Source: Escherichia phage APC_JM3.2
DNA length: 39,761 nt
Strand: one strand, 5' to 3'
Sequence record: MG197996.1
In this document: in pieces, positions 2,927 through 39,455 of the stretch
How the letters are laid out: every line of letters starts with the position of its first letter
How positions within the stretch are numbered: position 1 is the stretch's first letter
Made by a program: the position numbers and the translations under genes
The notes under the pieces: model-generated
The model's input: the letters and a program-made list of their open reading frames with translations, nothing else
Database searches by the model: none
Told to the model about the DNA's origin: nothing

Positions 2927-3521
2927 GGTTTGGGTAGATATCGAAGGGATTCCATTTTATCAGGTTAGCAATAAAGGAAATTTCAGGTCTATTACGAGGG
3001 AAGTTACAGTAACATCAACCAGACAGAGGCCATATAAGAAAATAATTAATGGCACTAGCGTAAAACCATTCAAGTGCAAGTCGACAGGATATCTTCAAAT
3101 AAAGGTATACGGTAAGAAATACAGCGCCCACAGGATAGTTGCGAAAGCATTCTGTACAGGGTTCTGTGATGGCTTGGTAGTTAATCACAAAAATGGGCAA
3201 AGAGATGACAATAGGGCTGAAAACCTTGAATGGGTATCACATTCTGAAAACTCAAAGCACGGATATAAACAAAATGGAAGAATACCTATATCGCTAGGTA
3301 AATTTAGTGGTGATCATCCTGCCAGTAAAGCTGTTATTTCTACTGACATGAAAACTGGTGAGGAGGTTTATTATGAAGCAGCTATGGATGCTGTCAGAGA
3401 AGGATTTGATAGTTCGTCAATTAGTCGTTGCTGTAATGGCGAAAGCTCATATCACAAAGGAAGATTCTGGCGATTTGCAAATGAAACAATGAAAGCGAGA
3501 TGGGGAGATCGGGCTGCATGA
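2919..3521 (+). CDS. HNH homing endonuclease (NUMOD4-like N-terminus plus HNH motif)
   Basis: 200-aa ORF with strong GGAGG RBS; motif VNHKNGQRDDNRAENLEWVSHSEN; ORF terminates in KARWGDRAA, the recalled lambda NinB C-terminus. Confidence 0.8.
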   Translation: MIEVWVDIEGIPFYQVSNKGNFRSITREVTVTSTRQRPYKKIINGTSVKPFKCKSTGYLQIKVYGKKYSAHRIVAKAFCTGFCDGLVVNHKNGQRDDNRAENLEWVSHSENSKHGYKQNGRIPISLGKFSGDHPASKAVISTDMKTGEEVYYEAAMDAVREGFDSSSISRCCNGESSYHKGRFWRFANETMKARWGDRAA

Positions 3522-4390
3522 TAAATGTCGTTAGTTTCTCCGGTGGCAGGACGTCAGCATATTTGCTCTGGCTAATGGAGCAAAAGCGACGGGCAGGTAA
3601 AGACGTGCATTACGTTTTCATGGATACAGGTTGTGAACATCCAATGACATATCGGTTTGTCAGGGAAGTTGTGAAGTTCTGGGATATACCGCTCACCGTA
3701 TTGCAGGTTGATATCAACCCGGAGCTTGGACAGCCAAATGGTTATACGGTATGGGAACCAAAGGATATTCAGACGCGAATGCCTGTTCTGAAGCCATTTA
3801 TCGATATGGTAAAGAAATATGGCACTCCATACGTCGGCGGCGCGTTCTGCACTGACAGATTAAAACTCGTTCCCTTCACCAAATACTGTAATGACCATTT
3901 CGGGCGAGGGAATTACACCACGTGGATTGGCATCAGAGCTGATGAACCGAAGCGGCTAAAGCCAAAGCCTGGAATCAGATATCTTGCTGAACTGTCAGAC
4001 TTTGAGAAGGAGGATATCCTCGCATGGTGGAAGCAACAACCATTCGATTTGCAAATACCGGAACATCTCGGTAACTGCATATTCTGCATTAAAAAATCAA
4101 CGCAAAAAATCGGACTTGCCTGCAAAGATGAGGAGGGATTGCAGCGTGTTTTTAATGAGGTCATCACGGGATCCCATGTGCGTGACGGACATCGGGAAAC
4201 GCCAAAGGAGATTATGTACCGAGGAAGAATGTCGCTGGACGGTATCGCGAAAATGTATTCAGAAAATGATTATCAATCCCTGTATCAGGACATGGTACGA
4301 GCTAAAAGATTCGATACCGGCTCTTGTTCTGAGTCATGCGAAATATTTGGAGGGCAGCTTGATTTCGACTTCGGGAGGGAAGCTGCATGA
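3518..4390 (+). CDS. ninC: NinC (PAPS-reductase-like protein, lambda ORF290 type)
   Basis: [42 protein letters not shown]... near-identical to lambda NinC as recalled; ATGA overlap with upstream stop. Confidence 0.9.
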
Positions 4391-5258: not shown

Positions 5259-5862
5259 ACCAGCGCGAAGACGATGTAAAAACGAAGAATGTCGGGAATG
5301 GTTTCACCCTGCATTCGCTAATCAGTGGTGGTGCTCTCCAGAGTGTGGAACAAAGATAGCACTCGAACGACGAAGCAAAGAACGCGAAAAAGCGGAAAAA
5401 GCAGCAGAGAAGAAACGGCGACGAGAGGAGCAGAAACAGAAAGATAAACTTAAGATTCGAAAACTCGCCTTAAAGCCCCGCAGTTACTGGATTAAACAAG
5501 CCCAACAAGCCGTAAACGCCTTCATCAGAGAAAGAGACCGCGACTTACCATGTATCTCGTGCGGAACGCTCACGTCTGCTCAGTGGGATGCCGGGCATTA
5601 CCGGACAACTGCTGCGGCACCTCAACTCCGATTTGATGAACGCAATATTCACAAGCAATGCGTGGTGTGCAACCAGCACAAAAGCGGAAATCTCGTTCCG
5701 TATCGCGTCGAACTGATTAACCGCATCGGGCAGGAAGCAGTAGACGAAATCGAATCAAACCATAGCCGCCATCGCTGGACTATCGAAGAGTGCAAGGCGA
5801 TCAAGGCAGAGTACCAACAGAAACTCAAAGACCTGCGAAATAGCAGAAGTGAGGCCGCATGA
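5251..5862 (+). CDS. ninG: NinG / Rap, recombination-associated junction endonuclease
   Basis: 203-aa ORF with lambda NinG-like sequence (cysteine cluster, basic coiled region); overlaps ninF stop. Confidence 0.9.
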
Positions 5863-27216: not shown

Positions 27217-27484
27217 TGATGCAGCCATGGATGGCTACATGAATGGGTGGTGCTTGTTTACGAAGTAAACCAGAAGCACAAACGCGACGATGTTAATTGC
27301 AACTACAATTTTGCTATTCATCAGTGACCCCTATAGGTAGGTAAAGTTAGAGTCTCATTGATTTCCATGTACATTCAAGTCTCCATGGTCTTGCGTGTCT
27401 ATCATTCAGTCTTACACTCGTACTTCTACCACTCAAAAAATTCCCTATACGCATTCGCCTGCTTAGCAAAAGCATACTCCATTC

Positions 27485-27532
27485 TTGTTGAACTCCGCCA
27501 CCTACAAATAATTACTGTATGTGCATGCAGCG
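27485..27532 (+). promoter_or_regulatory. Candidate sigma70 promoter with overlapping LexA-like (SOS) box upstream of the UmuD'-like gene
   Basis: -35 TTGTTG 27485-27490, 17-nt spacer, -10 ATAATT 27508-27513; TACTGTATGTGCATGCAG 27513-27530 has CTG-N10-CAG and a perfect TACTGTAT left half. Confidence 0.4.
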
Positions 27533-27549
27533 ATTATCGGAGGTGCATC

Positions 27550-27846
27550 ATGGGATTCCCCAGTCCTGCACAAGACTGCATAGAGGAGCACATATCGATC
27601 GACAAGCGCATCATATCGAGGCCAGTGGCTACCTACTTCATGAAAACGGGGGCAACACACTACCGGGAAGGCATCCTAAGTGGCGCTCTCTTTGCCGTTG
27701 ATGCATCTTTGAACCCATGTGATGGCTCATTGCTGGTTTGTGCAACTGATGGTGAGTTCAGAATTAAGCGTTACCTGACATACCCGCAACCGCATCTGGA
27801 AAATCTGGATAACGGAAAGAGGGAGAGGATTCCTGACAAGAATTAG
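27550..27846 (+). CDS. UmuD'-like (peptidase S24 fold) protein lacking the catalytic serine, C-terminally shortened
   Basis: 98-aa ORF, GGAGGT RBS 7 nt upstream; MGFPSPAQDCIEE..PVATYF..DGEFRIKRY aligns by eye to E. coli UmuD from Gly25 (the UmuD' N-terminus); GDSM serine site replaced by ATHY. Confidence 0.65.
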   Translation: MGFPSPAQDCIEEHISIDKRIISRPVATYFMKTGATHYREGILSGALFAVDASLNPCDGSLLVCATDGEFRIKRYLTYPQPHLENLDNGKRERIPDKN

Positions 27847-27951
27847 GCCTCTGAGACTTCTCGACCTGTATTTGTGGTGATCACCTACATCATCAACGAT
27901 GCGCGTGCAGGTTAGTTTGATGACTACCCGCTGAAGTGAAAATTGTGTTGT

Positions 27952-28245
27952 GTACCAAATTGCGTACCAAACTAAAATCACAAATCATGAAACCCTTGTT
28001 CATGGCGGTTCTCAGGGGTGTTGCGCGTAATCGTGAAAGAGGAAGGTAGGTTGTTTATCTGTGTCTGTCATTGTCTAGCATTGTCCACTGTAGTTAATTA
28101 ACTGTATGTTATAACTCGAAAAACAACCCTTTTTTAACCTGAGTATGTCTACGAACGTCAAATATAGTTGTTTACTGTGCGCTGTTGTCCATGTGATATT
28201 GTGTACCAGATGTGTACCAAACTATTATTTCTGAGCGTACCAAAT
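27952..28245. repeat. attP: attP-like region with five direct arm-type repeats GTACCA(A/G)A(T/C) upstream of int
   Basis: GTACCAAAT 27952-27960, GTACCAAAC 27964-27972, GTACCAGAT 28203-28211, GTACCAAAC 28214-28222, GTACCAAAT 28237-28245. Confidence 0.45.
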
Positions 28246-28252
28246 ATTATTT

Positions 28253-29431
28253 ATGGCTATAAGCGACACAAAACTGCGTACTATTTATGGTAAACCATAT
28301 TCGGGCCCACAAGAAGTGGCTGATGCCGATGGCCTCAGCGTACGAATTTCACCGAAGGGGGTCATCCAGTTCCAGTACCGCTATCGCTGGCATGGCAAGC
28401 CTAATCGACTTGGGCTTGGTCGATACCCATCCCTGTCTTTGAAGGATGCCAGACAGATCACTGCTGACTTGCGAAAGCTCTATTTCTCAGGAACGGATCC
28501 ACGCACTTATTTTGAAGAGAAGGTGGAGAACTCCATGACGGTCGCCCAGTGTCTTGACTACTGGTTCGACAACTACGTCTCTACAACTCTCAGAGAAAAG
28601 ACCCAGGCACTTTACCGATCAACGGTTATGAAGCGCATGCATGACGCCTTTCCTAATCGTCCGGCATCTTCTATCACGGTTAAGCAATGGGTTGACCTGC
28701 TTACCGAAGAAGAAAGAGATAATCCACGCCGAGCAAGGCAGGTGCTAAGCCAACTAAGATCAGCAATAAGTTGGTGCATGCGGCGTCAGTTGATAGATAG
28801 TTGCGCAATTATGAGCATCCAACCAAGGGACTTCGGCTCCCGCGCTGAGGTAGGGGATCGGGTACTGTCGTATCACGAACTGGCTAAGATTTGGCTTGCT
28901 ATTGAAAGAAGCCGTGCGTCTACCTCAAATAAGCTACTTCATCAGATGCTTATGCTGTGGGGGGCGAGGCTCTCAGAGCTTAGGCTGGCAAAAAAGACAG
29001 AATTTGACCTACTGGAAAACGTATGGACCGTACCGAAAGAGCATAGCAAGATGGGTAATGTTATCCGCCGTCCAATCTTCGAACAAATTAAGCCTTTCCT
29101 CGAAAAGGCCATGACAACGTACAATGATGTTCTTTTCTCTGGAGAAGACATAAACAAACCGATCAGCATCGCTGCAGCCAACCGATTCGTAAATAGAATA
29201 AGGGGAGGGATGGATCTCGGTTACTGGCGAACACACGATTTCAGAAGAACGCTTGTTACACGTCTGTCCGAGATGAATGTCGAGCCTCATGTTACTGAGC
29301 GAATGCTCGGTCATGAACTTGGCGGGATAATGTCCGTATACAATAAACACGACTGGATAGAGGCTCAGCGCAAAGCGTATGAGCTTCACGCTGATAAATT
29401 GTTCTGGCACATCAGGAGCATTTCTGATTAA
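28253..29431 (+). CDS. int: Tyrosine integrase (arm-binding N-terminal domain, P4/CP4-57-like)
   Basis: 392-aa ORF; N-terminal DGLSVRISPKGVIQFQYRYRW... arm-binding type; C-terminal catalytic region with HDFRRT and VYNKH (catalytic Tyr). Confidence 0.9.
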   Translation: MAISDTKLRTIYGKPYSGPQEVADADGLSVRISPKGVIQFQYRYRWHGKPNRLGLGRYPSLSLKDARQITADLRKLYFSGTDPRTYFEEKVENSMTVAQCLDYWFDNYVSTTLREKTQALYRSTVMKRMHDAFPNRPASSITVKQWVDLLTEEERDNPRRARQVLSQLRSAISWCMRRQLIDSCAIMSIQPRDFGSRAEVGDRVLSYHELAKIWLAIERSRASTSNKLLHQMLMLWGARLSELRLAKKTEFDLLENVWTVPKEHSKMGNVIRRPIFEQIKPFLEKAMTTYNDVLFSGEDINKPISIAAANRFVNRIRGGMDLGYWRTHDFRRTLVTRLSEMNVEPHVTERMLGHELGGIMSVYNKHDWIEAQRKAYELHADKLFWHIRSISD

Positions 29432-29603
29432 CGCCACCGTTAAGAATCCACCCCTCAACAGCTTCACGAAGGTATGATTTGGGGTGGGTTCTGACTGGCT
29501 TCGGAAATCCGTGCCGTTTGGTATAGTTCCAGATTGTCTGACGTGATGAAACACCGAGCTTGTTCATCACTTCTTTCTCAGGAATCAGGCTGGTATCGGT
29601 CAT
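29412..29603 (-). CDS. xis: Excisionase / AlpA-family DNA-binding protein
   Basis: 63-aa ORF KEVMNKLGVSSRQTIWNYTKRHGFPKPV... (AlpA-type HTH); converges on and overlaps int 3' end by 20 nt; GGAG RBS. Confidence 0.75.
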   Translation of the reverse strand: MTDTSLIPEKEVMNKLGVSSRQTIWNYTKRHGFPKPVRTHPKSYLREAVEGWILNGGVNQKCS

Positions 29604-29614
29604 CTTAATTCTCC

Positions 29615-29642
29615 AGGCAAAAAGAAACCGCCATCAGGCGGC
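29615..29642 (-). terminator. Intrinsic terminator on minus strand immediately upstream of xis
   Basis: Minus-strand RNA GCCGCC-UGAU-GGCGGU followed by UUUCUUUUUG. Confidence 0.5.
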
Positions 29643-29801
29643 TTGGTGTTCTTTCAGTTCTTCAATTCGAATATTGGTTACTTCTGCATGTGCTATCTGC
29701 GCCCATATCATCCAGTGGTCATAGCAGTCGTTGATGTTCTCGGCTTCGATAACCCTGTCGAATGGCTCTCCATTCCATTCACCTGTGACTCGGAAGTGCA
29801 T
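29634..29801 (-). CDS. Small hypothetical protein (55 aa), stop codon inside terminator loop
   Basis: Hand-translated MHFRVTGEWNGEPFDRVIEAENINDCYDHWMIWAQIAHAEVTNIRIEELKEHQAA; below ORF-track cutoff; GGAG about 8 nt upstream. Confidence 0.3.
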   Translation of the reverse strand: MHFRVTGEWNGEPFDRVIEAENINDCYDHWMIWAQIAHAEVTNIRIEELKEHQAA

Positions 29802-29873
29802 TTATCATCTCCATAAAACAAAACTCGCCGTAGCGAGTTCAGATAAAAGAAATCCCCGCGAGTTCGAGGATTG

Positions 29874-30158
29874 TTATTCATTGCCGATATTCACCTTTAT
29901 CGCGAACACCTTTACCGGTTTATCGCCGAAGTGCGGATGTGTGATTGTCTTGATTTCATATCCGTCATACGGAACATCAATTCTACGGCTGGAATCGTCG
30001 CGCTTCGGATATCCCTTTGTGATAATCAGGCGGTCATATTCCCGGAACATAATTCGCTTATTCCAGTAGTCATTACACAGGCGATACTCTTCCGTTTTCT
30101 CTCCTCGAATCATGGCATCGAAGTATTCACCTTTGACGGCAAGTTGAAGGTTAGCCAC
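29874..30158 (-). CDS. Hypothetical protein (94 aa)
   Basis: GTG start 6 nt after AGGAGG; stop/start overlap with upstream gene. Confidence 0.5.
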   Translation of the reverse strand: MANLQLAVKGEYFDAMIRGEKTEEYRLCNDYWNKRIMFREYDRLIITKGYPKRDDSSRRIDVPYDGYEIKTITHPHFGDKPVKVFAIKVNIGNE

Positions 30159-30846
30159 GGTTAACCTCCTGCGGCGGTTCTGGTAGCGGCATCCAGTGTG
30201 ATGGTATCCACGACGCACCAGGAATTATCCACCCATCATTAGCGTCAGGATGCCCAGGGATGTAAGTCGCCCATTTCATTCGCCAGCCACCTTTCCTGTC
30301 AAACTCCCTGGCAACAAGAACGGCTGTTTTGCTATCCGGCATTCGCTCACTACAGCTTATCCAACCATCCGGAGTTACCGGAGAGTTGCCAGCCAGTCTA
30401 CGCAAAACAGCCTTAACAGCCTCAATACGCTCATCATCGCAACTTTCTGCAGTATCTATGCGGTCGAGCATGATGATGGCGTTATCAATATCAGGATTGC
30501 CAGTCCACTCATTACCGCGATTGGATTCGGCAGCCTGGTTGCGCATAATCTCAGGCGTAAGCTCTTTGTAAGCATAAGCAAGAGGCTCTGATGCATTATC
30601 CGGCACAACCGACGCAGGCGCGGCAGCATAAACAGGAATAACGTCCGCTTGCTCTTTATTGCTTTCATCCGTTAAAGCCCAGAATAATTTCCCGGCCGGA
30701 TGTTTGAAAATATAAGCAACTGGATCTGCTTCCAGCGATGCCAGTGCAATTTCATAAGCCCGGCGTTCAATATTGTCTCGAACGTCCAGGCTGCTGATAC
30801 GCTCTTTGATTTCTTTAATCAGTTCTTTGTCGGTGAAAGTGGTCAT
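30151..30846 (-). CDS. DUF551-type prophage protein
   Basis: 231-aa ORF; C-terminal region ..GWISCSERMPDSKTAVLV...GWIIPGASWIPSHWMPLPEPP resembles the DUF551 signature as recalled. Confidence 0.6.
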   Translation of the reverse strand: MTTFTDKELIKEIKERISSLDVRDNIERRAYEIALASLEADPVAYIFKHPAGKLFWALTDESNKEQADVIPVYAAAPASVVPDNASEPLAYAYKELTPEIMRNQAAESNRGNEWTGNPDIDNAIIMLDRIDTAESCDDERIEAVKAVLRRLAGNSPVTPDGWISCSERMPDSKTAVLVAREFDRKGGWRMKWATYIPGHPDANDGWIIPGASWIPSHWMPLPEPPQEVNRG

Positions 30847-30856
30847 AAATTATGTC

Positions 30857-31093
30857 TCAGTTGTATCCGATTGGATTAACCGCAACAATAACGCCATCCG
30901 CGAACAAATCTTTAATGAGGTGTTCGCTCGGCTCGCCTTTTTCGTACTCTTCAATAAGGTAAGTGTCTCCATCCTCATTGATATAAACTGGAAGAATGGA
31001 ACCGTTGATGAAGTAGGTTCCGTTGTTATCGAGGATTTTTGCCTCGGCGATTTGTTTTTTGGTAAAACGATCTTCTTTTTTCAAAGTTGCCAT
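30857..31093 (-). CDS. Hypothetical protein (78 aa)
   Basis: ORF from internal ATG (MATLKKEDRF...), 1 nt after upstream gene stop. Confidence 0.45.
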   Translation of the reverse strand: MATLKKEDRFTKKQIAEAKILDNNGTYFINGSILPVYINEDGDTYLIEEYEKGEPSEHLIKDLFADGVIVAVNPIGYN

Positions 31094-31094
31094 A

Positions 31095-31658
31095 TCACTC
31101 TCCTTTGATGCGAATGCCAGCGACGCGTGGCACATTAACTTCCACAATGCGCACAGTTGGTTTGTACATCTCAATCGCAGTCAGCCAGTCAGCGCCAGTC
31201 ATGCGCTTTCCTGCATCGCCATTAGTCCACTTAACCGGTACACCAATAGCCTTCATCGCGATTTCTATTTCCCCGGCAATGGCGCTTTTTCCGCAACCAG
31301 TAAAACCAGATACAACGACCAGAACTTCACCTTTGGCTGGTTTTATTTCCCGCGCTTCCAGTTCTGCTATGCGCTTACTTCCATCCGAGATAACACCTTC
31401 GTAATACTCACGCTGCTCGTTGAGTTTTGATTTTGCTTCCTCAAGCTCAACTCTCAGCTTCCCTACCGTTAGCGCAATATCCTCGTTCTCCTGGTCACGG
31501 CGTTTTATGTATTGCTGGTTTCTTTCCTGTTCATCCAGCAGTTCCAGCACAATCGATGGTGTTACCAACTCATGGAAAAGGTCCGCGTCAAATCCCCAGT
31601 CGTCATGCATTGCCTGCTCTGCCGCCTCACGCAGTGCCTGATAGTCAATCTTGTTCAT
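31095..31658 (-). CDS. Ead/Ea22-like early protein
   Basis: 187-aa ORF MNKIDYQALREAAEQAMHDDWGF... with central coiled-coil; N-terminal motif recalled from Ead/Ea22-like prophage proteins. Confidence 0.55.
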   Translation of the reverse strand: MNKIDYQALREAAEQAMHDDWGFDADLFHELVTPSIVLELLDEQERNQQYIKRRDQENEDIALTVGKLRVELEEAKSKLNEQREYYEGVISDGSKRIAELEAREIKPAKGEVLVVVSGFTGCGKSAIAGEIEIAMKAIGVPVKWTNGDAGKRMTGADWLTAIEMYKPTVRIVEVNVPRVAGIRIKGE

Positions 31659-31659
31659 A

Positions 31660-31959
31660 TCACATCACCCTGAAGCCGTTGCATTTACGTAAAAAATCGC
31701 AGATATAGCCCTTCATTTTTTCGTGCCAATCTCGATCATTCCCATTGCACCAACCATCAGGTGGAGTCCAGTTTTCTATCAGAGCAGCCATTTTCTTTGC
31801 TTTCGCCGGAGTAGCTGTTGCGGTATCGCAGTAATGACGAGTGTCAACCAACGCATCCATACCATCGATATCAAGTACGCAAAACCATGTGTGATTCGGA
31901 ATTCCTACAGGTGGTATTTGTTGCCCACGTCGACGTTTATCAATAAGATATACACTCAC
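31660..31959 (-). CDS. Hypothetical protein (99 aa)
   Basis: GTG start 6 nt after AAGGAGG; several Cys/His residues. Confidence 0.55.
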
Positions 31960-32156
31960 TGCTTGCCTCCTTTACGCCACATCGCATTCAGATATTTGTT
32001 TTGATTCACTGAAGGAAAAGAATTTCTCTTAAGCAATTCCTCTCTCGATGGCATTGGCTTTACGCGTTGGCGAATAATCATTTCTGCCGGAAGAATGCCG
32101 GGATTGTATGCAAGTCCTCTCATGGTAAATTCCTCAGTCATTACTGATAGCGCCAT
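31956..32156 (-). CDS. Hypothetical protein (about 66 aa)
   Basis: In-frame [13 protein letters not shown]... overlapping stop of upstream gene; start uncertain. Confidence 0.4.
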
Positions 32157-32430
32157 AGCGTGAGCGGTAATTACGCAGGCGCGGGTCGATATATTCAGGG
32201 AAGTGGGTATATGTGGCTTTGCGGAATGGTCGGATTGATGTCTGGTAAATTCGCTCGCGTTCTTCTTTCTCTGCAAGCCATATACAATGGCGAAATTCCT
32301 TTTCCTCTTTCGTTTCCTGCGGTAGCGACATTATCCGATCGTAGTTTTTTCTGAATTTATCCAGCACCTCCGATACGGAATTGCCGGAACAGCGGCGCGG
32401 GTCATCCGCACCATACTGAGGCGCTGGCAT
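32134..32430 (-). CDS. Hypothetical protein (98 aa)
   Basis: ORF in operon context; basic, no recognised domain. Confidence 0.5.
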
Positions 32431-32453
32431 AATGGGAGCCTTATTTTCAGTAA

Positions 32454-33041
32454 TCAGAAAGGAGGGTAATCGTTCTGGCTGTAACCATAATCATCTACAT
32501 GATTCTGGCTTACGTTTTTAGAGCGATTGTCTTTATCTTTGAGATTGGCAACCATGTTGGCGATAGTTTCTGGTTGCTTGCCTTCTGCCTTTTCTTTAAG
32601 GGTTTGACCTGTTTGTGCAATAAACGGGATGCGTATTTCCATCTGGTAGCTGTCTGCGCCAGTCTTTTTGTTTGTGGTTAATACTTTCTGGAGCACTAAC
32701 CCGATTTTCTTTCCATGAAACTCAGGAGCAACAAATTTACTGATGGAAACCATATGTTGCGTTAATTGTCCAATCCCGGCACACCCCATCATGGCGTGAA
32801 CGACATTTGCGCCAAATTTGTTTTCCGTTCCGTCATTTTTCTGAACACAGACGCTAAGATATTGGATTTTACGTCCGTCGTCGGATTCGCCAGAAAACTC
32901 AATAAATTTGGCTCCTTTTTCTGATTGCTTTAGTTCTGCTTCAGTAATGGTAATGATATGAGCGCCAGTTTCGTTAATAAAACCACCTTGCCCTGCGGTC
33001 AGTGCTGCTTCTTCGTTATAAGTAAAAATCACGTTGCTCAT
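32454..33041 (-). CDS. Putative single-strand DNA-binding partner of Sak4 (DUF669-like)
   Basis: 195-aa ORF translationally coupled (ATGA) to Sak4; gene-neighbourhood logic. Confidence 0.5.
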   Translation of the reverse strand: MSNVIFTYNEEAALTAGQGGFINETGAHIITITEAELKQSEKGAKFIEFSGESDDGRKIQYLSVCVQKNDGTENKFGANVVHAMMGCAGIGQLTQHMVSISKFVAPEFHGKKIGLVLQKVLTTNKKTGADSYQMEIRIPFIAQTGQTLKEKAEGKQPETIANMVANLKDKDNRSKNVSQNHVDDYGYSQNDYPPF

Positions 33042-33718
33042 GCGGCGTTTTCCTTAATTTGATGAACATTATTGATGCCGTAGTAATCACAAACAGTGGC
33101 ATCGACAAAAGAGAGATCGTTATCAATCTCATTGGAATCAAACATTCCCATTGGGGATTTAACAGTGTCTGCACCGTTGTTTTTCGTGGTGAAAAAGAAC
33201 TGGTCATCACGGGTAAGGGTGCGAAGAACTATAGTAAACATGCCTTCAACAGTGATTTTCTCGTCCAGCATTTTGCCGATAGTCTTCATTTTCACACGCC
33301 CCATAGGGGTTTCTTCGGTATGGGCAAGAAAATAGACTCTCAGGTCATCAGGCGCATCCTGTGCAGCCTTAATGACCTCCCATGCGTGACGGCCTATCTC
33401 AGTGAATTTATCAAACGATTTTTCTTCTGAGCGGCGCATAAACTCATTGCTCATCACATACTGGAAGTCATCAACAATAACGATTCTTTTCCCGTATTCG
33501 TGAGCACGCTTAATTACGGCAACTATTACGTCCCATTTGTCAGTGGTAACTACGGTTCCTTTTTTTGCTCTGGCATCCCATGCAAGCCAGTCTTTTGATT
33601 TAAATGGTAGCGGCTTGCCTATTGGTTTTATAAGTATTGCTTCCTCTGGATTGATATTTCTCATGCTGGTTGATTTTCCGGTGCCAGACTCACCGAGTAT
33701 TAATGTCGCAGTTCCCAT
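33038..33718 (-). CDS. sak4: Sak4-type RecA-like recombinase (AAA_24 ATPase)
   Basis: 226-aa ORF; Walker A GESGTGKST near N-terminus, Walker B RIVIVDD; size and layout typical of Sak4. Confidence 0.8.
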   Translation of the reverse strand: MGTATLILGESGTGKSTSMRNINPEEAILIKPIGKPLPFKSKDWLAWDARAKKGTVVTTDKWDVIVAVIKRAHEYGKRIVIVDDFQYVMSNEFMRRSEEKSFDKFTEIGRHAWEVIKAAQDAPDDLRVYFLAHTEETPMGRVKMKTIGKMLDEKITVEGMFTIVLRTLTRDDQFFFTTKNNGADTVKSPMGMFDSNEIDNDLSFVDATVCDYYGINNVHQIKENAA

Positions 33719-33726
33719 AATTTGCC

Positions 33727-33915
33727 TCAGAATGGTAATTCGGATGGGACGGAAAGAAATTCGCGCTCATTCATGCGCTCTCTTTGTGCTTGCCATAAAC
33801 AAAGTTGTTTCTTTGATTTATCTCCCGCTTTACGCCAGTAACGAGCCTCAGCAATGTGATATTCTCTTTTTAATCGACTTAACTCTGGAGTTTTAGCCAG
33901 CTCTACCGGAATCAT
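33727..33915 (-). CDS. Hypothetical protein (about 62 aa)
   Basis: Start chosen at internal ATG (MIPVELAKT..) 5 nt after GGAGG; ATGA overlap with upstream stop. Confidence 0.45.
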   Translation of the reverse strand: MIPVELAKTPELSRLKREYHIAEARYWRKAGDKSKKQLCLWQAQRERMNEREFLSVPSELPF

Positions 33916-34115
33916 TTTGACCTCCATTTTCTGTAGGCTTCGACGGCCTCACGAAACATCTTTTCATCGCCAATAAAAGTGGCGATAGTGAATTTAGTCT
34001 GAATAGCCATAAGTGTTTTATCCATTTTTGGGAACTCCTGGCTGATTAAGTACGTCGATGAGTCGTTTCCATCCGTCACGTAATTTACGGGTGATTCGTT
34101 CAAGTAAAGATTCAT
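33912..34115 (-). CDS. Hypothetical protein (67 aa; possible shorter form from internal ATG with AGGAG RBS)
   Basis: ORF in operon; start ambiguous. Confidence 0.35.
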   Translation of the reverse strand: MNLYLNESPVNYVTDGNDSSTYLISQEFPKMDKTLMAIQTKFTIATFIGDEKMFREAVEAYRKWRSK

Positions 34116-34188
34116 TTAGTTGGAAGGCACCCATGCGAGCGCCTCCCGCGATTGCGTAAATCATGGGTGGTTCCTTATGTTGGTTTTA

Positions 34189-35157
34189 TTAGTAGGTTAT
34201 TTTTGTTGCGAATACTTCGCCTTTTACGATGGCTGTTATGATATTTTTAGCAACATCTTCTGATGCACCAACCTTGATAAGGTCAGCAAGTATTTTGTTA
34301 TTTACTTCTTTCCGGTGAGCTTTATCCTTTGCTCTACGCTCTTCTTCGTCCTTGATTCTTTTTTCTTCTGCGATTCTGGCTTGCTCTTTTGCTTCAGCCT
34401 CGCGCCGGATTCGTTCAGCCTCCTCCTGTGCTTTTCGGCGTTCTGCTTCAATTGCCGCCTGCTTTTCTCTTTCAGCTCGTTCTGCTGCCTCTTTTGCTTC
34501 GCGCTGTGCTCGTTGCTCGGCCTCAATGCGTTCACGCTCTGCACGTTCCGCTGCGGCCTTAGCTTCTGCTTCTCGCCTTGCTGCTGCTTCAATTTCGGCT
34601 TTTGCCTTTGCTTCGGCTTCTGCTCTGGCTTTCTCTTCAGCTTCTCTTTTTAATCGTTCTTCATGCTCTCGCTTTTCCTGCTCCGCTTTGAGTCTTGCCT
34701 CTTCTCTTTGGCGGTCAAATTCGCGATCCATCAAAATCGCTATTTCATGGTCAGACTCAATTTGCTTTGCGAGAGCTTCAGCTGCTGCCTTAGCTTCTTC
34801 TTCGGCTTTAATCCGCGCCTGTTCTTCCTCATAATCAGTAAGAGGCTGGCGCGCCTTGGCTTTCAGTTCATCAAGGCGATCGCGCACTGTCTTGCGGTTG
34901 GCATCAATTAGCTTTGGAATTTCCTTCAGTTCAGCAACAAGGTCTTTGCCAAGACCATCGAGATATGTTTTCGTCTGCGCAACTTTATACGCCAGAGAAG
35001 CGATCTCCTTTCTGCCCTTTGCCGTTGTGATATCAGGCACAAAGGACATAACTTCACGTTCAACCTTTTGAAGGATTTCTTCAATCTGGTCGGCAGACTG
35101 AAATACAGTCATTGCATTTGCTTTTTCAATAACAACTAAATCTGTTACTTCACTCAT
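34189..35157 (-). CDS. ER/K-rich coiled-coil protein (322 aa) with long charged low-complexity helix
   Basis: AAGGAGGA RBS 4-5 nt upstream; central 130 aa almost entirely E/A/K/R (..REAEEKARAEAEAKAKAEIEAAARREAEAKAAAERAERERIEAEQRAQREAKE..). Confidence 0.7.
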   Translation of the reverse strand: MSEVTDLVVIEKANAMTVFQSADQIEEILQKVEREVMSFVPDITTAKGRKEIASLAYKVAQTKTYLDGLGKDLVAELKEIPKLIDANRKTVRDRLDELKAKARQPLTDYEEEQARIKAEEEAKAAAEALAKQIESDHEIAILMDREFDRQREEARLKAEQEKREHEERLKREAEEKARAEAEAKAKAEIEAAARREAEAKAAAERAERERIEAEQRAQREAKEAAERAEREKQAAIEAERRKAQEEAERIRREAEAKEQARIAEEKRIKDEEERRAKDKAHRKEVNNKILADLIKVGASEDVAKNIITAIVKGEVFATKITY

Positions 35158-35191
35158 ATATCCTCCTTCGTTGTATTCTTTAAAAACGCTC

Positions 35192-35560
35192 TCAGGCGGC
35201 TTTGATAGTCATATCATCTGAATCAAATATTCCAGATGTGTCGATATCGGTAATTCTTATTCCTTCGCTACCATCCATTGGAGGCCATCCTTCCTGACCA
35301 TTTCCATCATTCCAGTCGAACTCACACACAACACCATATGCATTTAAGTCGCTTGAAATTGCTATAAGCAGAGCATGTTGCGCCAGCATGATTAATACAG
35401 CATTTAATACAGAGCCGTGTTTATTGAGTCGGTATTCAGAGTCTGACCAGAAATTATTAATCTGGTGAAGTTTTTCCTCTGTCATTACGTCATGGTCGAT
35501 TTCAATTTCTATTGATGCTTTCCAGTCGTAATCAATGATGTATTTTTTGATGTTTGACAT
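35192..35560 (-). CDS. Strongly acidic hypothetical protein (122 aa)
   Basis: GAGGAT RBS; estimated net charge about -17 (D+E about 25, K+R about 8); first gene after a terminator. Confidence 0.6.
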   Translation of the reverse strand: MSNIKKYIIDYDWKASIEIEIDHDVMTEEKLHQINNFWSDSEYRLNKHGSVLNAVLIMLAQHALLIAISSDLNAYGVVCEFDWNDGNGQEGWPPMDGSEGIRITDIDTSGIFDSDDMTIKAA

Positions 35561-35580
35561 CTGTTCATATCCTCACAGAT

Positions 35581-35606
35581 AAAAAATCGCCCTCACATTG
35601 GAGGGC
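35581..35606 (-). terminator. Intrinsic terminator on minus strand upstream of the acidic 122-aa gene
   Basis: Minus-strand RNA GCCCUC-CAAUGU-GAGGGCG followed by AUUUUUUAU. Confidence 0.55.
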
Positions 35607-35699
35607 AAAGAAGATTTCCAATAATCAGAACAAGTCGGCTCCTGTTTAGTTACGAGCGACATTGCTCACATAGCAGACTCGTAAATCTGCTATAGGCGC

Positions 35700-35858
35700 T
35701 TATTCGCATCGCATGACAACATCAAATTTTTCGAGATTACTTTGTCGCAACAATCCTTCTTCTACGCGGTCAGCTTTTCTATAATTATCAAATTCGAAAT
35801 GTTTAATTACTTCTTTCGTTTCTCGCTCTATAACTTCAACGATGTATTTCTTATTCAT
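35700..35858 (-). CDS. Small hypothetical protein (52 aa)
   Basis: Hand-translated MNKKYIVEVIERETKEVIKHFEFDNYRKADRVEEGLLRQSNLEKFDVVMRCE; start overlaps upstream stop. Confidence 0.4.
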   Translation of the reverse strand: MNKKYIVEVIERETKEVIKHFEFDNYRKADRVEEGLLRQSNLEKFDVVMRCE

Positions 35859-36154
35859 TACTCATCACCTATGGCTTTTCTGATTGCTGCGAGACCTTTA
35901 TTAACAGCTCCATACCATTCTGGATATGTTGTCGTTGTTCTATTTTTGGATTGCTTAAGTAATAACTGAAGTGCTTCGAGAAGGTCAGGTGCTGCCGCTA
36001 TTAGATTGGCATCTTCAATGCATTGAACTTCCTCACAGATTGCAATATACGAACGCCAGCCTGTGCCATTTTCAAGAGAGTCTGCCTGGATGATTTTAAT
36101 CTCATCGCCATCCATCATTATTTCCCACTTACCTTCAGTACCTTTAAATTCCAT
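35858..36154 (-). CDS. Acidic hypothetical protein (98 aa)
   Basis: AGAGG RBS; contains ..ANLIAAAPDLLEALQLL.. motif. Confidence 0.6.
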   Translation of the reverse strand: MEFKGTEGKWEIMMDGDEIKIIQADSLENGTGWRSYIAICEEVQCIEDANLIAAAPDLLEALQLLLKQSKNRTTTTYPEWYGAVNKGLAAIRKAIGDE

Positions 36155-36174
36155 GTTAGCCTCTGTTGTTTATG

Positions 36175-36202
36175 CCAAAAATAAAGGCCGACTATGCGGC
36201 CT
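36175..36202 (-). terminator. Intrinsic terminator on minus strand after the 212-aa gene (stop codon in loop)
   Basis: Minus-strand RNA AGGCCG-CAUAGU-CGGCCU followed by UUAUUUUUGG; TAG stop lies in the loop. Confidence 0.55.
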
Positions 36203-36815
36203 CGGAAGGAAGTCCAATCATCTTATTCAAATCTTCTACCCGTAAAGCAGGAAGTGCTGTACTTGCTTTATCTGCTTCTTTTGGTAGCAACTCTTTGCTT
36301 TCAGGCCAAACCTCAATAAGTCGCTTAACTGTTGTGACTGAGTTTAAAGCAGCCCATACATTTGATTCGATATCCTTTTTCTTAGCTTCAAGTTTTTGTT
36401 GTAATGAGCAGATTTCATCAAACCTTTTTGTTATTTCGTGCTCTGCGTCAAACATGCATTTATCTTTTATCGGAGTAGGGAGAAATATATCTTCGCCGTT
36501 GCCGTCTTTCCCATATGAATGCCATCCAACCCTTCTGTCAGATACAGTCAGATAAATTGAAGTAGAACGAAAATCGTATGAGTAAAATGAACATCCCATC
36601 TTTCCAAGTTCTTCACTTATAGCTACCAACTTGGATGATAACTGATCCACTTCCTCAGTTTTCTTTTTACCGCCAAACGCAATAACTCTGGCGTCAAGTG
36701 CAAGCTGGTTCTTTAACTTTGTTACTTCTTCAAGCTCAGTGAAAACCCCAGACTTAATTAAAGCGTTACGAGCGATTTCCTCTTTCATTCTCGTAGTTAA
36801 GCGGATTGATGACAT
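36192..36815 (-). CDS. Hypothetical protein (207 aa), flanked on both sides by intrinsic terminators
   Basis: Start set at ATG 36815 (MSSIRLTTRMKEEI..) with GAGAGGAA RBS; K/E-rich; no domain recognised. Confidence 0.6.
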   Translation of the reverse strand: MSSIRLTTRMKEEIARNALIKSGVFTELEEVTKLKNQLALDARVIAFGGKKKTEEVDQLSSKLVAISEELGKMGCSFYSYDFRSTSIYLTVSDRRVGWHSYGKDGNGEDIFLPTPIKDKCMFDAEHEITKRFDEICSLQQKLEAKKKDIESNVWAALNSVTTVKRLIEVWPESKELLPKEADKASTALPALRVEDLNKMIGLPSEAA

Positions 36816-36829
36816 ATTAATTCCTCTCA

Positions 36830-36861
36830 AATAAGAAAATAAAGGCCACCATCAGGCAGCC
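36830..36861 (-). terminator. Intrinsic terminator on minus strand after the 83-aa gene (stop codon in loop)
   Basis: Minus-strand RNA GGCUGCC-UGAU-GGUGGCC (two G-U pairs, so strand-specific) followed by UUUAUUUUCUUAUUU. Confidence 0.5.
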
Positions 36862-37103
36862 TTGTTGTAAATGTTGCAGGTATCAAGTAAGTAATTAGAT
36901 GGAGCGCCATAAATTATGAATTCATCGTTTGTCGGGTCCATCTCCATCTCTTGGCCTATTGCCATTCTTGCGTCAGTGTCGTCAGCGGCGAAGCATAAAA
37001 CAGCCCACGCACCCATTGTTTTAAAAAGAACTGCAATTGGCTGTGGTTTTACTGAATTTGCGTTAGCGCGAAAATCACAAATCGCACTTTCATGAAATTC
37101 CAT
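36852..37103 (-). CDS. Acidic hypothetical protein (83 aa)
   Basis: AGGTGAT RBS; second gene of the leftward early operon. Confidence 0.6.
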   Translation of the reverse strand: MEFHESAICDFRANANSVKPQPIAVLFKTMGAWAVLCFAADDTDARMAIGQEMEMDPTNDEFIIYGAPSNYLLDTCNIYNKAA

Positions 37104-37165
37104 ATATCACCTAAAATAAGTGGTTTGCTGCCAAAACAATGAACCATCCGGAAATTCCAGATAGT

Positions 37166-37393
37166 TCATAATTCACTCTTCAATACTTCCAGCTTACTAA
37201 TCGCCGAAAGATATCCGCGCTGATAAGGCATCAGCATTCCGTTGAGCTTTTCACTCCTTAACTCCTCTCTAAGCAGGTTAATGGCCTTATCGATAACTTC
37301 TGCCTTAGCGTCCTTTATGGCTTGCTTTCGGGGCTTTGCTTTCTGCTTTGGCAGATTTCTCAAGCATGATGGAATGTATGTCTGATTCATCAC
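37166..37393 (-). CDS. First gene of the leftward early operon (N-equivalent position); basic N-terminus, function unassigned
   Basis: 75-aa ORF, GAGGT RBS; K/R-rich N-terminal segment LRNLPKQKAKPRKQAIKDAK; no similarity to lambda N apparent. Confidence 0.5.
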   Translation of the reverse strand: MMNQTYIPSCLRNLPKQKAKPRKQAIKDAKAEVIDKAINLLREELRSEKLNGMLMPYQRGYLSAISKLEVLKSEL

Positions 37394-37643
37394 TTACCTC
37401 GCTGTAACCTGCTTACTTGTACGATGACCAGCTGCGAAAAGCGCAACTTCTGGCAGGCAGACAGTACCACTCTTCAAATCAGCCTCCTTTTTCTTTTTCT
37501 ATATCAAAAAGCTGCTTTGCTTTTGTGACTAAAAGCAAAAAAGCCTTCTCGCTAATGAGCAGCATTGCCGTTCATCCTGAACCCGCCGCGCTCCCGACGC
37601 ATGGTTTAAAGACGCGCCGTTCGTCTATGGCTTAACTATATCC

Positions 37644-37670
37644 AAAGCTATTATTGCTGTAAATAGCTAT
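37644..37670. promoter_or_regulatory. Candidate left operator site (inverted repeat AAAGCTATT-N9-AATAGCTAT)
   Basis: Near-palindrome counted directly; same architecture as the right-operator candidate. Confidence 0.4.
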
Positions 37671-37761
37671 AGTTATAAAATAACTCCTTTGGTTATTTAG
37701 TCATTGATATCTAATGTAATTTATTTTTCTTGTATGTGAGATTTGGTGTTTTTTGGGCAAT

Positions 37762-37790
37762 AAAAAACCCGCAAAAAGCGGGTTTGTTGT
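37762..37790 (-). terminator. Intrinsic terminator downstream of cI
   Basis: Stem AAACCCGC / GCGGGTTT with AAAAA loop; on the minus strand it is followed by UUUUUUAUUG, 12 nt after the cI stop. Confidence 0.65.
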
Positions 37791-37802
37791 GGTGTGATGA
37801 GG

Positions 37803-38534
37803 TTAGTAGTCAACTACAGACCACCAGAAGATTCTTCCGATGATCTCGATATCGCTTAGATTCTTTTCTTCTTGTGGGTATTCCAGTGAGTTAAAGCTTC
37901 TAATGCTTACCTTGTCAGGCCCTGATCGAAAGAGAATCTTAATGCGTTTCCAACCGTTCTCGTTAATGGCGTAAATCTTTCCGTCAACTATTTTCTTATC
38001 GTTGGTGTTAACAGCAACTGTTGTTCCATCAGGAATGTTTGGCTCCATGCTGTTGCCACGAGCCGGAAAACAAACAACCCCGCTTCCATCACTGTTCGCG
38101 CCAACTCTGCGAAGGGTTGATTTGGAGAAGCGCAACATAAAGCCGTTGTGATCTTCATCAATCACCCGACCATCCCCGCATGCAAACTCAATATCTTTAA
38201 GGTAAGGAACTTCAACTTCATCACCTCTTAAAGGCGTTCCTCCATCCCATGGGTCCAAATATCCCCACGTGCTTTCATGAGGAATAGAAGATTTTGGATT
38301 ATAAGGTTCAACTCCCTCATCACGCATTGGCCCAGTCCCATCGGAAAGCCATTCCGTACGAACTCCAAGCACTTTTGATATTTCAAAAAGTTTGCGCGTA
38401 TTGCGTGTTTTTCCAGACGTAAGTTTCCAGACGCTTGGCTGAGACATGCCAACAGCATTGCCAAGTGAAGCCTGAGTAAACCCAGCCTGATCCATCGCGT
38501 ATGTAAGCCTTTGAGAAAAAGTATCTAGTTTCAT
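37803..38534 (-). CDS. cI: CI-type prophage repressor (HTH plus S24 autopeptidase domain)
   Basis: 243-aa ORF; N-terminal HTH ..QASLGNAVGMSQPSVWKL..; C-terminal GNSMEP (Ser nucleophile) and ..GWKRIK (Lys) S24 motifs. Confidence 0.9.
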   Translation of the reverse strand: MKLDTFSQRLTYAMDQAGFTQASLGNAVGMSQPSVWKLTSGKTRNTRKLFEISKVLGVRTEWLSDGTGPMRDEGVEPYNPKSSIPHESTWGYLDPWDGGTPLRGDEVEVPYLKDIEFACGDGRVIDEDHNGFMLRFSKSTLRRVGANSDGSGVVCFPARGNSMEPNIPDGTTVAVNTNDKKIVDGKIYAINENGWKRIKILFRSGPDKVSIRSFNSLEYPQEEKNLSDIEIIGRIFWWSVVDY

Positions 38535-38575
38535 TCGGACAACCTATAGCTACAGCTATTATTAGTCAAATACCT

Positions 38576-38602
38576 AAAGCTATTTACTTTCTGAATAGCT
38601 TT
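38576..38602. promoter_or_regulatory. Candidate right operator site overlapping putative pR (-35 TTTACT 38583-38588, -10 TATTAT 38606-38611)
   Basis: Perfect 9-bp inverted repeat AAAGCTATT-N9-AATAGCTTT between cI and cro. Confidence 0.45.
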
Positions 38603-38642
38603 GGCTATTATTCTGATTGTGAATTCAGCAGGAGTTATTTTT

Positions 38643-38873
38643 ATGGTCAACAAGGCTATTAAAGCGGCTATTGACTCAGTAGGAAGTCAGCAAAAGTTAG
38701 CTGATGCCTGCGGTGTTAAGCAGCCGTCTGTATGGGCTTGGTTGCATGGGAAGAAAAGGGTATCCGCTGAAAATGCCAAGCGCATTGAAATGGCTACCAA
38801 TGGAAGCGTCCCTGCATACCTGATTCGCCCTGATTTATCCGCTTTGTTCCCCAATCCGAACAAAGCAGCTTAA
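38643..38873 (+). CDS. cro: Cro-like repressor (HTH)
   Basis: 76-aa ORF from ATG 38643 with AGGAG RBS; ..QQKLADACGVKQPSVWAWLHGKK.. HTH; divergent from cI. Confidence 0.8.
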   Translation: MVNKAIKAAIDSVGSQQKLADACGVKQPSVWAWLHGKKRVSAENAKRIEMATNGSVPAYLIRPDLSALFPNPNKAA

Positions 38874-38992
38874 TAAAGCAAATTTTTATACCGAACGGCC
38901 CGGTATACGGTCGGGTGCCCGGCGTGGTCAAGGATGACTGTCAATGGTGCACGATAAAAACCCAAATTATTTACCTATGGAGATAGTAAGAA

Positions 38993-39289
38993 ATGACACA
39001 AGCAAGCTACAGCAAGCCAACACAGCGAGAAATTGATCGCGCTGAAACTGATTTACTCATCAACCTGTCAACGCTTACCCAGCGCGGTCTGGCAAAGATG
39101 ATTGGCTGTCATGAATCGAAGATAAGCAGAACGGACTGGAGGTTTATTGCTTCGGTCTTGTGTGCTTTTGGAATGGCATCAGACATCAGTCCGATTAGCA
39201 GGGCTTTTAAGTATGCGCTTGATGGACTCACCAATAAAAAACGCCCGGCGGCAACCGAGCGTTCTGAACAAATCCAGATGGAATTTTAA
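38993..39289 (+). CDS. cII: CII transcriptional activator
   Basis: 98-aa ORF; C-terminal ..LTNKKRPAATERSEQIQMEF identical to lambda CII C-terminus as recalled; HTH in the middle. Confidence 0.9.
   Translation: MTQASYSKPTQREIDRAETDLLINLSTLTQRGLAKMIGCHESKISRTDWRFIASVLCAFGMASDISPISRAFKYALDGLTNKKRPAATERSEQIQMEF
39236..39262 (-). terminator. oop-like antisense terminator within the cII 3' end
   Basis: Minus-strand GGUUGCCGCCGGGCGUUUUUUAUUGG, matching the lambda t_oop region as recalled. Confidence 0.45.
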
Positions 39290-39311
39290 CAACATTCAAC
39301 GAGGTAATTAT

Positions 39312-39455
39312 ATGCGAAAAACGCAGGAAAATAAACGCGTTAATCACCGAAAAGATGTGCTACGTGACCAGTTTTATCAGTGGGTTAATCCAGCAATAGC
39401 TGTGCCACTGAGAGAAATACTTAACAGGTACAAAACTTCGGAGAAGTCAAAATGA
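39312..39455 (+). CDS. Small basic hypothetical protein (47 aa) translationally coupled to the replication initiator
   Basis: GAGGT RBS 7 nt before ATG; stop TGA overlaps the ATG of the downstream gene. Confidence 0.4.
   Translation: MRKTQENKRVNHRKDVLRDQFYQWVNPAIAVPLREILNRYKTSEKSK

Follow-up and report, generated by a model that had tools for sequence, protein, structure and literature searches.

What does it mean when the same arrangement occurs three times in the leftward early region of one phage, namely a gene whose last two sense codons, read as alanine–alanine, form the 5′ arm of a hairpin and whose stop codon lies in the loop? The question concerns the genome of Escherichia phage APC_JM3.2 (sequence record MG197996.1), of which the whole analysed stretch of 39,761 nucleotides (nt) is hereafter called the window. 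It was raised by an earlier note that had described three minus-strand genes ending in KAA, EAA and QAA in this manner, each followed by a U-tract, and that had thought both of coupled control of translation and termination and of degradation tags of the ssrA type. The anatomy was found as described at all three sites, with hairpin coordinates agreeing to 1-3 nt. The three elements are best explained, with a probability that we put at about 65%, as compact Rho-independent terminators that close accessory-gene modules at their 3′ ends, the phage being a P22-like/lambdoid mosaic and the modules part of its leftward early (PL) operon. The window is indeed that of a mosaic lambdoid phage, its structural genes being P22-like, with IME10 as the nearest relative, and its early genes overlapping piecemeal with those of lambda, HK022, the mEp phages and the Stx phages. 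The genes (lengths in amino acids, aa) and the elements in which they end, numbered as sites 1 to 3, are the following.

29634-29801, minus strand: 55-aa gene, phrog_676, homolog of lambda orf55/lambdap35, ending ...KEHQAA
29644-29625, minus strand: site 1, terminator hairpin AAGCCGCC-TGAT-GGCGGTTT with the stop TGA (29636-29634) in the loop; whole element 29619..29644
Site 1, minus strand: U-tract TTTCTTTTT adjoining the hairpin, its T-run reaching 29619; the xis-like gene starts at 29603, 30 nt past the stop
36192-36815, minus strand: 207-aa gene, Pfam PF18757 (Nmad5), ending ...LPSEAA
36203-36184, minus strand: site 2, terminator hairpin GAGGCCG-CATAGT-CGGCCTT with the stop TAG (36194-36192) in the loop; whole element 36177..36203
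Site 2, minus strand: U-tract TTTATTTTT ending at 36177; the next gene starts at 36154
36852-37103, minus strand: 83-aa gene, phrog_2471, VT2-Sap20-like, ending ...IYNKAA
36863-36842, minus strand: site 3, terminator hairpin AAGGCTGCC-TGAT-GGTGGCCTT with the stop TGA (36854-36852) in the loop; whole element 36829..36863
Site 3, minus strand: U-tract TTTATTTTCTTATTT, T-rich to 36829; the next gene starts at 36815

Judged by profile comparison, in which the three open reading frames (ORFs) align to PHROG families over the full length of the profile, these minus-strand genes are real conserved families. Folding of the three sites, as the earlier note had proposed, yielded compact hairpins with minimum free energies (MFE) of -13.0 kcal/mol at site 1, -11.0 kcal/mol at site 2 and -13.9 kcal/mol (z = -3.7) at site 3. 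The stems, located downstream of PL in the minus strand, comprise 7-9 pairs, five of them G-C, and close loops of 4-6 nt. In the stem of site 3 a U.G pair adjoins a G.U pair; the hairpin folds with -13.9 kcal/mol on the minus strand vs -8.5 kcal/mol on the plus strand, so that the surmise that at least one hairpin depends on G-U pairing, and hence on the minus-strand transcript, holds for this site. The two sequence criteria applied here to an intrinsic terminator were a stem rich in G+C, with 5 bp or more and a 3-8 nt loop, in the transcribed strand, and a U-rich tract directly 3′ of that stem, and each of the sites has both; the T-rich tract, 8-9 nt long and directly 3′ of each stem, is kept in diverged homologs. 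The spacer of 30-37 nt at each site holds both the terminator and the ribosome-binding site of the next gene, the latter outside the stem. At site 3 the sequence of loop and 3′ arm (36845-36852, minus strand) is GATGGTGG, which differs by one mismatch from the Chi octamer GCTGGTGG.

A scan of positions 27000-39761 returned 26 terminator-like sites vs 12.3 +/- 3.2 in shuffled sequence, and all seven strong hairpins, defined by at least 7 pairs, five of them G-C, were found on the minus strand. A stop codon is covered by four of these seven, a figure that includes the gene occupying the N position and that has a probability of P ~3e-4 under random placement in the operon. The fourth case concerns the following pair of features.

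37166-37393, minus strand: N-position gene of 75 aa, the first PL gene, phrog_5305, a family of unknown function
37139..37169, minus strand: 14-bp hairpin beginning on the TGA stop (37168-37166) of this gene

This last hairpin (37169-37139) is the most stable (MFE -20.3, z = -5.0), and the T tract that follows it is weak (TGTTTTGG).

The design has precedents. In lambda the site-1 hairpin follows the 55-aa orf (lambdap35, ...KEHQAA) about 20 nt before xis, and a site-3-type hairpin is found at the end of ral (...NNKAA). The record of mEp234 (JQ182732) carries an annotated Rho-independent terminator (25668-25694) that overlaps the end of the coding sequence (CDS) of the site-3 homolog and is the direct homolog of site 3, and that of P22 (NC_002371) carries an annotated terminator (28402-28422) overlapping gene 17. 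The latter reads ACAGCCGCC-TGA-GTGCGGCTTTTT, its 5′ arm containing the Ala-Ala codons and its loop the stop; the protein ends in ...TAA. Both therefore resemble the window sites in having the last codons as 5′ arm, the stop in the loop, a U-tract and a location in the PL operon; the two records give the terminator annotation only, the geometry of the stop within the loop and the Ala-Ala termini going uncommented. In the record of mEp235, the relative examined for site 2, site 2 is unannotated. A further trace of the P22 element is seen elsewhere in the window, and the end of Ea10 in lambda is likewise a degenerate copy of it.

35192..35200, minus strand: C-terminus of Ea10, ...KAA, encoded by GCCGCC-TGA; degenerate remnant of a stop-in-loop terminator of the P22 gene-17 type

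The comparison thus indicates that the stop-in-loop architecture is inherited, being already present, and in part annotated, in lambda, P22 and mEp234; by anatomy and comparison together the terminator reading of the three sites is well supported, the design itself being already known in these relatives. Between Ea10 and site 2 lies an element of a more ordinary kind.

35587..35608, minus strand: conserved intergenic terminator without gene overlap, homolog of lambda tL2a and of the Sf6 'bsq4 boundary sequence'

In lambda the stretch between ral and ea10 gives rise to an Hfq-bound small RNA (sRNA), LPR1, which has its 3′ end at tL2a (bioRxiv 10.1101/2024.10.31.621285). The longer segment 35587-35668 (minus strand) is the window homolog of this stretch: ral is missing, yet the terminator and some of the sRNA body are conserved.

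Is it, at the three sites, the RNA stem or the Ala-Ala terminus that is constrained? The 83-aa protein has homologs in Citrobacter, Enterobacter, Klebsiella and metagenomes (70-84% identity) whose termini are KAA, KQAA, KQPA or KQAV, and in all seven loci examined the stop-in-loop hairpin is kept together with its U-tract, with energies of -7.6 to -15.6 kcal/mol. In the A-to-V variant (GCC to GTC) the pairing is preserved as U.G, and QTA, the variant terminus most often seen in the orf55 family, results from a change of GCC to ACC that replaces the closing G.U pair by A-U. An alignment of ten hairpins leaves 92% of the cells paired, vs 16-64% when the partners are slid. Since diverged homologs retain the hairpin despite the loss of Ala-Ala, the dipeptide at these sites would be a by-product of the stem, and we conclude from the sequences compared that the constraint here falls on the RNA stem, of which Ala-Ala is the in-frame reading.

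The comparison of 240 related loci in IMG/VR indicated that each hairpin travels with its gene and that identity to the window stops right past the U-tract, a loss that identifies the sites as mosaic boundaries. The site-1 (orf55) hairpin is conserved in 108 loci and is followed by at least seven unrelated downstream contexts. In other phages the homologs of the 83-aa gene are trailed by exactly the sequence found past site 2 in the window, so that the Nmad5 module has been inserted between two copies of a single cassette. In fact, a cassette made of 3′ arm and U-tract, CGGCCTTTATTTTTGGCA, stands after at least five unrelated genes and in different registers: the stop occupies the loop (protein end EAA, or KDE where the stem is mismatched), falls in the 5′ arm as TGA, or lies 4 nt upstream. 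Furthermore, the Enterobacter homolog of the 83-aa gene bears a site-2-type hairpin. Taken together, the sharing of the cassette and the Enterobacter swap imply that sites 2 and 3 are one element and that the three recurrences represent two or three cassettes. The architecture described in the earlier note as recurrent does recur, but not through independent inventions, given that sites 2 and 3 share a cassette and that all the types exist in lambda, P22 and mEp234.

A short conserved terminator between unrelated modules is also what the record of Sf6 annotates as 'bsq4; boundary sequence | terminator'; unlike in Sf6, the junction at the window sites lies inside the hairpin, so that every upstream gene must supply its own 5′ arm. 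The compaction of terminators against gene ends is general in lambdoid early regions: among 49 early-region families having a terminator within 30 nt of the stop, it overlaps the stop in nine and begins within 12 nt past it in 22. A second and very common terminator cassette, ACCCGGCCTCAGCGCCGGGTTTTCTTTGCC, is found 1-10 nt past the stop, or overlapping it, in more than 15 early genes of lambdoid prophages that are unrelated to one another; it was seen in the related loci L245-L324.

If these elements are terminators, how is the operon expressed through them? The features that bear on this point lie upstream of the first PL gene and past the cro-like gene.

37663-37635, minus strand: PL-like promoter TTTACA-17-TATAGT, which starts the leftward early operon
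37545-37635, minus strand: putL leader, a cis-acting antiterminator RNA; the ~135 nt following PL match HK022 putL (X16093) without a difference
38890..38992, plus strand: putR region after the cro-like gene; about 100 nt are 100% identical to the HK022 post-cro region with putR

HK022-type put sites are thus found both directly past PL and past the cro-like gene. Put RNA makes the polymerase resistant to intrinsic and Rho-dependent terminators without the need for any phage protein, and the sequence identity of putL and putR implies that antitermination in this operon is RNA-based and protein-independent, that is, judging from this identity, of the HK022 put type and not mediated by N. The reference in the earlier note to the 'N-position gene' as a counterpart of N does not survive: its 75-aa product matched no N or Nun family and no Pfam family, boxA/boxB nut sites not having been searched for, and the PL leader and post-cro sequences are those of HK022. 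The upstream neighbours of the 83-aa homologs elsewhere do match Pfam N36 / N_peptide. While putL and putR are identical to those of HK022, the window differs from that phage in having an unrelated 75-aa protein in the N/Nun position and in being otherwise P22-like. An upstream scan for promoters belonging to the three genes themselves (moron-type) gave no convincing sigma-70 match, and an Rfam scan of the whole window returned no family at gathering score, the put elements being without a matching Rfam family.

At sites 1-3 the stop lies within ~15 nt of the hairpin or inside it, and the ORFs are full-length conserved families. The pyrBI attenuator is a classical example of a terminator occluded by the ribosome. 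With a stop inside the ribosome footprint of the stem, a closely coupled ribosome should block folding of the hairpin. In a reporter carrying lambda tR2, repression was near-complete with the stop a few bp from the stem and maximum efficiency was reached only beyond ~27-30 nt, an effect that the authors (Li et al. 2016) ascribed to the leading ribosome covering the stem (PMC4824070). The window sites are like the tR2 constructs and the pyrBI-type attenuators in that the stop is close enough to the terminator stem to fall within the ribosome footprint; they are unlike them in that the terminators end full-length genes instead of leader peptides and in that the stop is inside the hairpin, at a distance below zero. 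By this analogy, translation-dependent termination at sites 1-3 is physically expected.

From the anatomy, folding, conservation and cassette sharing observed at the sites, and from the presence of putL and putR, we infer that they terminate transcription, that they are sensitive to the ribosome and that their biological role could be as follows. The CDS would run into the hairpin so that the terminator and the next ribosome-binding site fit the spacer of 30-37 nt; in frame, the G+C-rich 5′ arm would give GCY-GCM, hence Ala-Ala, and the stop would be the first A/U-rich triplet reached, that of the loop, while the 3′ arm and U-tract would constitute the common cassette at which lambdoid genomes recombine. 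A ribosome within ~12-15 nt of the stem would mask the 5′ arm, and the hairpin would form only behind a polymerase that is neither closely trailed by a ribosome nor modified by putL. The sites would accordingly be read through during put-driven, translated early expression and would halt stray or uncoupled transcription, set 3′ ends and mark module borders. 

That Ala-Ala termini are not confined to the hairpins was already suspected by the earlier note, which counted about nine proteins ending in this way. Exactly nine of 58 hand-picked window genes do so, at an internal dipeptide frequency of 0.94% (binomial P = 3.9e-9), and all nine are early or nin genes. The shuffles, the P of ~3e-4 for hairpin/stop overlap and this binomial P rule out chance as the origin of the overlaps and of the Ala-Ala count. 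In addition to the three site genes and Ea10, the termini are these.

33038..33046, minus strand: C-terminus of the Sak4-like protein, ...NAA, GCCGCA-TGA, with an ATGA overlap with the next gene and no hairpin
3513..3521, plus strand: C-terminus of the NinB-like protein, ...RAA, GCTGCA-TGA, the GCNGCATGA 9-mer, no overlap
4382..4390, plus strand: C-terminus of the NinC-like protein, ...EAA, GCTGCA-TGA, ATGA overlap
5854..5862, plus strand: C-terminus of the NinG-like protein, ...EAA, GAGGCCGCA-TGA, ATGA overlap
38865..38873, plus strand: C-terminus of the Cro-like protein, ...KAA (...NKAA), GCAGCT-TAA

As had been suggested, several of these ends arise through a stop/start overlap, three of them using GCN-GCA-TGA with an ATGA overlap. 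Ala-Ala ends amount to 8/70 in lambda and 7/57 in P22. For a wider comparison, a gene caller scoring codons over whole ORFs, trained on the window and lambda and having 97-100% precision there, was run on 320 lambdoid loci plus lambda and the window, giving 402 C-terminally colinear early-region families. Thirty of them end in Ala-Ala, vs 0.9% expected (P = 3e-18), the next commonest dipeptide being found in eight; with looser clustering the figure is 20/299. The controls gave 1/209 in E. coli K-12, 0/141 in late-region families of P22-like phages, 0/47 in Mu and 0/37 in P2, with Fisher P from 1e-7 to 1e-4 for early families against controls. Ala-Ala is therefore about ten times commoner than expected at the ends of lambdoid early proteins, and the hairpins explain only a small part of this excess, a terminator lying over the stop in only four to six of the 30 families.

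Several trivial causes were tried and discarded. A gene-caller artefact is ruled out by the precision of the caller and by the controls. General G+C richness of gene ends does not account for the excess, since the Ala pair is enriched and single Ala is not, GG and PP termini number zero, and GCNGCN, counted by its offset from the stop, peaks at -6 only (29 occurrences, vs 0-6 at every other offset). Nor does the ATGA stop/start overlap, for Ala-Ala is found in 10/76 families with an ATGA-type overlap and the excess persists in 5/80 with an adjacent start and in 15/246 with no start nearby. Cryptic hairpins at the terminator-less Ala-Ala genes are dismissed because no extra local structure is present (z = -0.05 vs -0.18, P = 0.67), and a preference of Ala-Ala genes for variable (mosaic) junctions because these account for 9/13 of them vs 36/61 other families (P = 0.55). 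The lambdoid early-gene excess is thus statistically robust and largely separate from the terminators. Unrelated Cro-type repressors also end in Ala-Ala, as in P22 Cro (...RQAA; 31744-31929 in locus L501) and others with RKAA, LLAA, ASAA and NQAA, and in many nut-type phages the TAA of cro stands directly before nutR boxA.

Some observations count against the terminator reading of the three sites. The Ala-Ala excess reaches far past the terminators, so that Ala-Ala could have preceded the stems. Covariation at the hairpins is weak and consists of one-sided changes only: in the alignment of ten hairpins four pairs change on one side, in a wobble-compatible manner, there are no double compensations, and the shuffle control is uninformative. 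The lambda copy at the ral end has a bulge in its stem and so is imperfect, and in the lambda sRNA study tL2a is assigned to the intergenic hairpin and not to the ral-end one (bioRxiv 10.1101/2024.10.31.621285). A search of the literature turned up no 3′-end evidence for the lambda orf55 or ral hairpins and no name for a terminator preceding lambda xis or closing ral, the 1980s tL2/tL3 papers not being covered. Finally, if put-modified polymerase ignores terminators, the sites do little in normal early expression.

What else could the hairpins and the Ala-Ala ends be? It is highly improbable that the hairpins are not terminators at all, acting instead as 3′-end or processing elements of the mRNA (blocks to exonucleases, RNase III or RNase E sites) or as tuners of translation. 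Such stems would shield the upstream message after processing, polymerase modified by put would pass them regardless, and the neighbouring tL2a region does give a processed, Hfq-bound sRNA in lambda; yet the T-rich tract right past each stem, kept in diverged homologs, is specific to intrinsic terminators, the next ribosome-binding site remains outside the stem, and the terminator-less Ala-Ala genes display no excess of local structure. Another account, which we regard as quite improbable, takes GCN-GCA-TGA, or more generally GCNGCN-stop, as a conserved linker between modules that serves cassette swaps and has spread by hitch-hiking, Ala-Ala being its mere translation and the terminator cassettes one class of it. 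It offers itself as an alternative to a degron because nearly every nin junction reads GCNGCATGA, namely those of NinB, NinC and NinG in lambda and of NinB, NinG, NinY and NinZ in P22. The restriction of the enrichment to the mosaic early regions of lambdoid phages, the demonstrable role of terminator cassettes as recombination boundaries and the Sf6 annotation of a boundary sequence that is a terminator all speak in its favour, but Ala-Ala families are not significantly commoner at variable junctions, half of them have no closely following start, GCNGCN is the sole common sequence outside ATGA contexts, and Ala-Ala recurs in distant Nmad5 homologs on unrelated contigs.

The remaining alternative makes Ala-Ala the primary, selected feature, either a ClpX C-motif-1 (ssrA-like) degron or some other protein signal that shortens the life of early proteins, with stems built later on GCNGCN; we hold it to be unlikely. 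A terminal Ala-Ala is the critical determinant for ClpXP and most xxxAA pentamers were active in a ClpXP screen, yet the dipeptide is not sufficient and Leu is favoured at -3. The three site proteins do have a free C-terminal Ala-Ala, and at -3 they carry K, E and Q in place of Leu; over the 30 families this residue is R in six, E in six, K in five, Q in three and L in three. The likeness to the ssrA tag and to the ClpX C-motif-1 extends to the free C-terminal Ala-Ala, whereas the phage termini lack Leu at -3 and the upstream SspB or ClpA determinants and are genome-encoded rather than added by tmRNA. The resemblance to ssrA tags put forward by the earlier note is therefore partial, the Ala-Ala itself being there and the residue at -3 and the natural variants, which drop Ala-Ala and keep the hairpin, going against it. 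What favours selection on the protein is the strength and specificity of the enrichment in early families relative to late ones, Mu, P2 and E. coli, the peak of GCNGCN at offset -6 alone, and the use of all four Ala codons. Within the terminator-less families the penultimate Ala codon varies by 12 synonymous vs 4 non-synonymous single-nucleotide variants; the preceding two codons, however, give 9:3, and the identical ratio points to ordinary purifying selection and nothing special. Of the 136 full-length representatives (50% clusters) examined for Nmad5, 18 terminate in AA, their tails varying in length, and the three Ala-Ala representatives inspected at the DNA level were all without a terminator; a profile scan of IMG/VR for Nmad5 returned close relatives only and reached no diverse phages. 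An AlphaFold2 (AF2) model of the window Nmad5 has a mean predicted local distance difference test (pLDDT) score of 90, falling to 50-60 over the last ~27 residues, which predicts that the C-terminal tail is probably flexible and accessible. No publication was found that deals with phage proteins ending in Ala-Ala or with the stability of proteins so ended. On these sequence grounds some ClpXP sensitivity of Ala-Ala proteins is plausible. That Ala-Ala is a selected protein-level mark on about one tenth of lambdoid early (PL, PR, nin) proteins, a weak ClpX-type degron that would clear recombination, regulatory and host-modifying proteins after early transcription, with the stop-in-loop terminators secondary to it, we consider a possible but doubtful view.

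Most terminators of lambdoid early operons lie inside the footprint of the terminating ribosome and should thus act mainly on untranslated or unmodified transcription, and masking of this kind helps explain how such operons keep silent as long as antitermination and translation do not come into play. The sites show, moreover, that mosaic joints can cross a hairpin, forcing the same terminal residues on unrelated genes. The most interesting lead is nonetheless the Ala-Ala excess, which is specific to lambdoid phages and to their early genes. Were it a proteolytic tag, it would confer built-in instability on a whole class of phage early proteins, including Bet, NinB, NinG, Ral, the Cro-type repressors and Nmad5, and would bear on the decision between lysis and lysogeny, on recombineering tools and on the shaping of phage development by ClpXP.

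Some other features of the window may be recorded. Downstream of site 1 the integrase gene (28253-29431, plus strand; Arm-DNA-bind_3 and Phage_integrase domains) converges on the xis-like gene (29412-29603, minus strand) with an overlap of 20 nt, unlike the int and xis genes of lambda and P22, which are co-directional. Between the tailspike gene and int, the C-terminal half of the ORF at 27358-27846 (plus strand) resembles a truncated fragment of a UmuD/LexA-type S24 peptidase, and this ORF may be host or attachment-site debris. The 322-aa protein encoded at 34189-35157 (minus strand), for which no Pfam match was obtained, has a long, highly charged, low-complexity core rich in E, A, K and R. 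A terminator of the oop RNA is known in lambda. In the window the cII-like gene (38993-39289) has, antisense to its 3′ end, a strong 12-bp terminator (39238-39265, minus strand), in a position equal to that of the oop RNA terminator annotated in P22.

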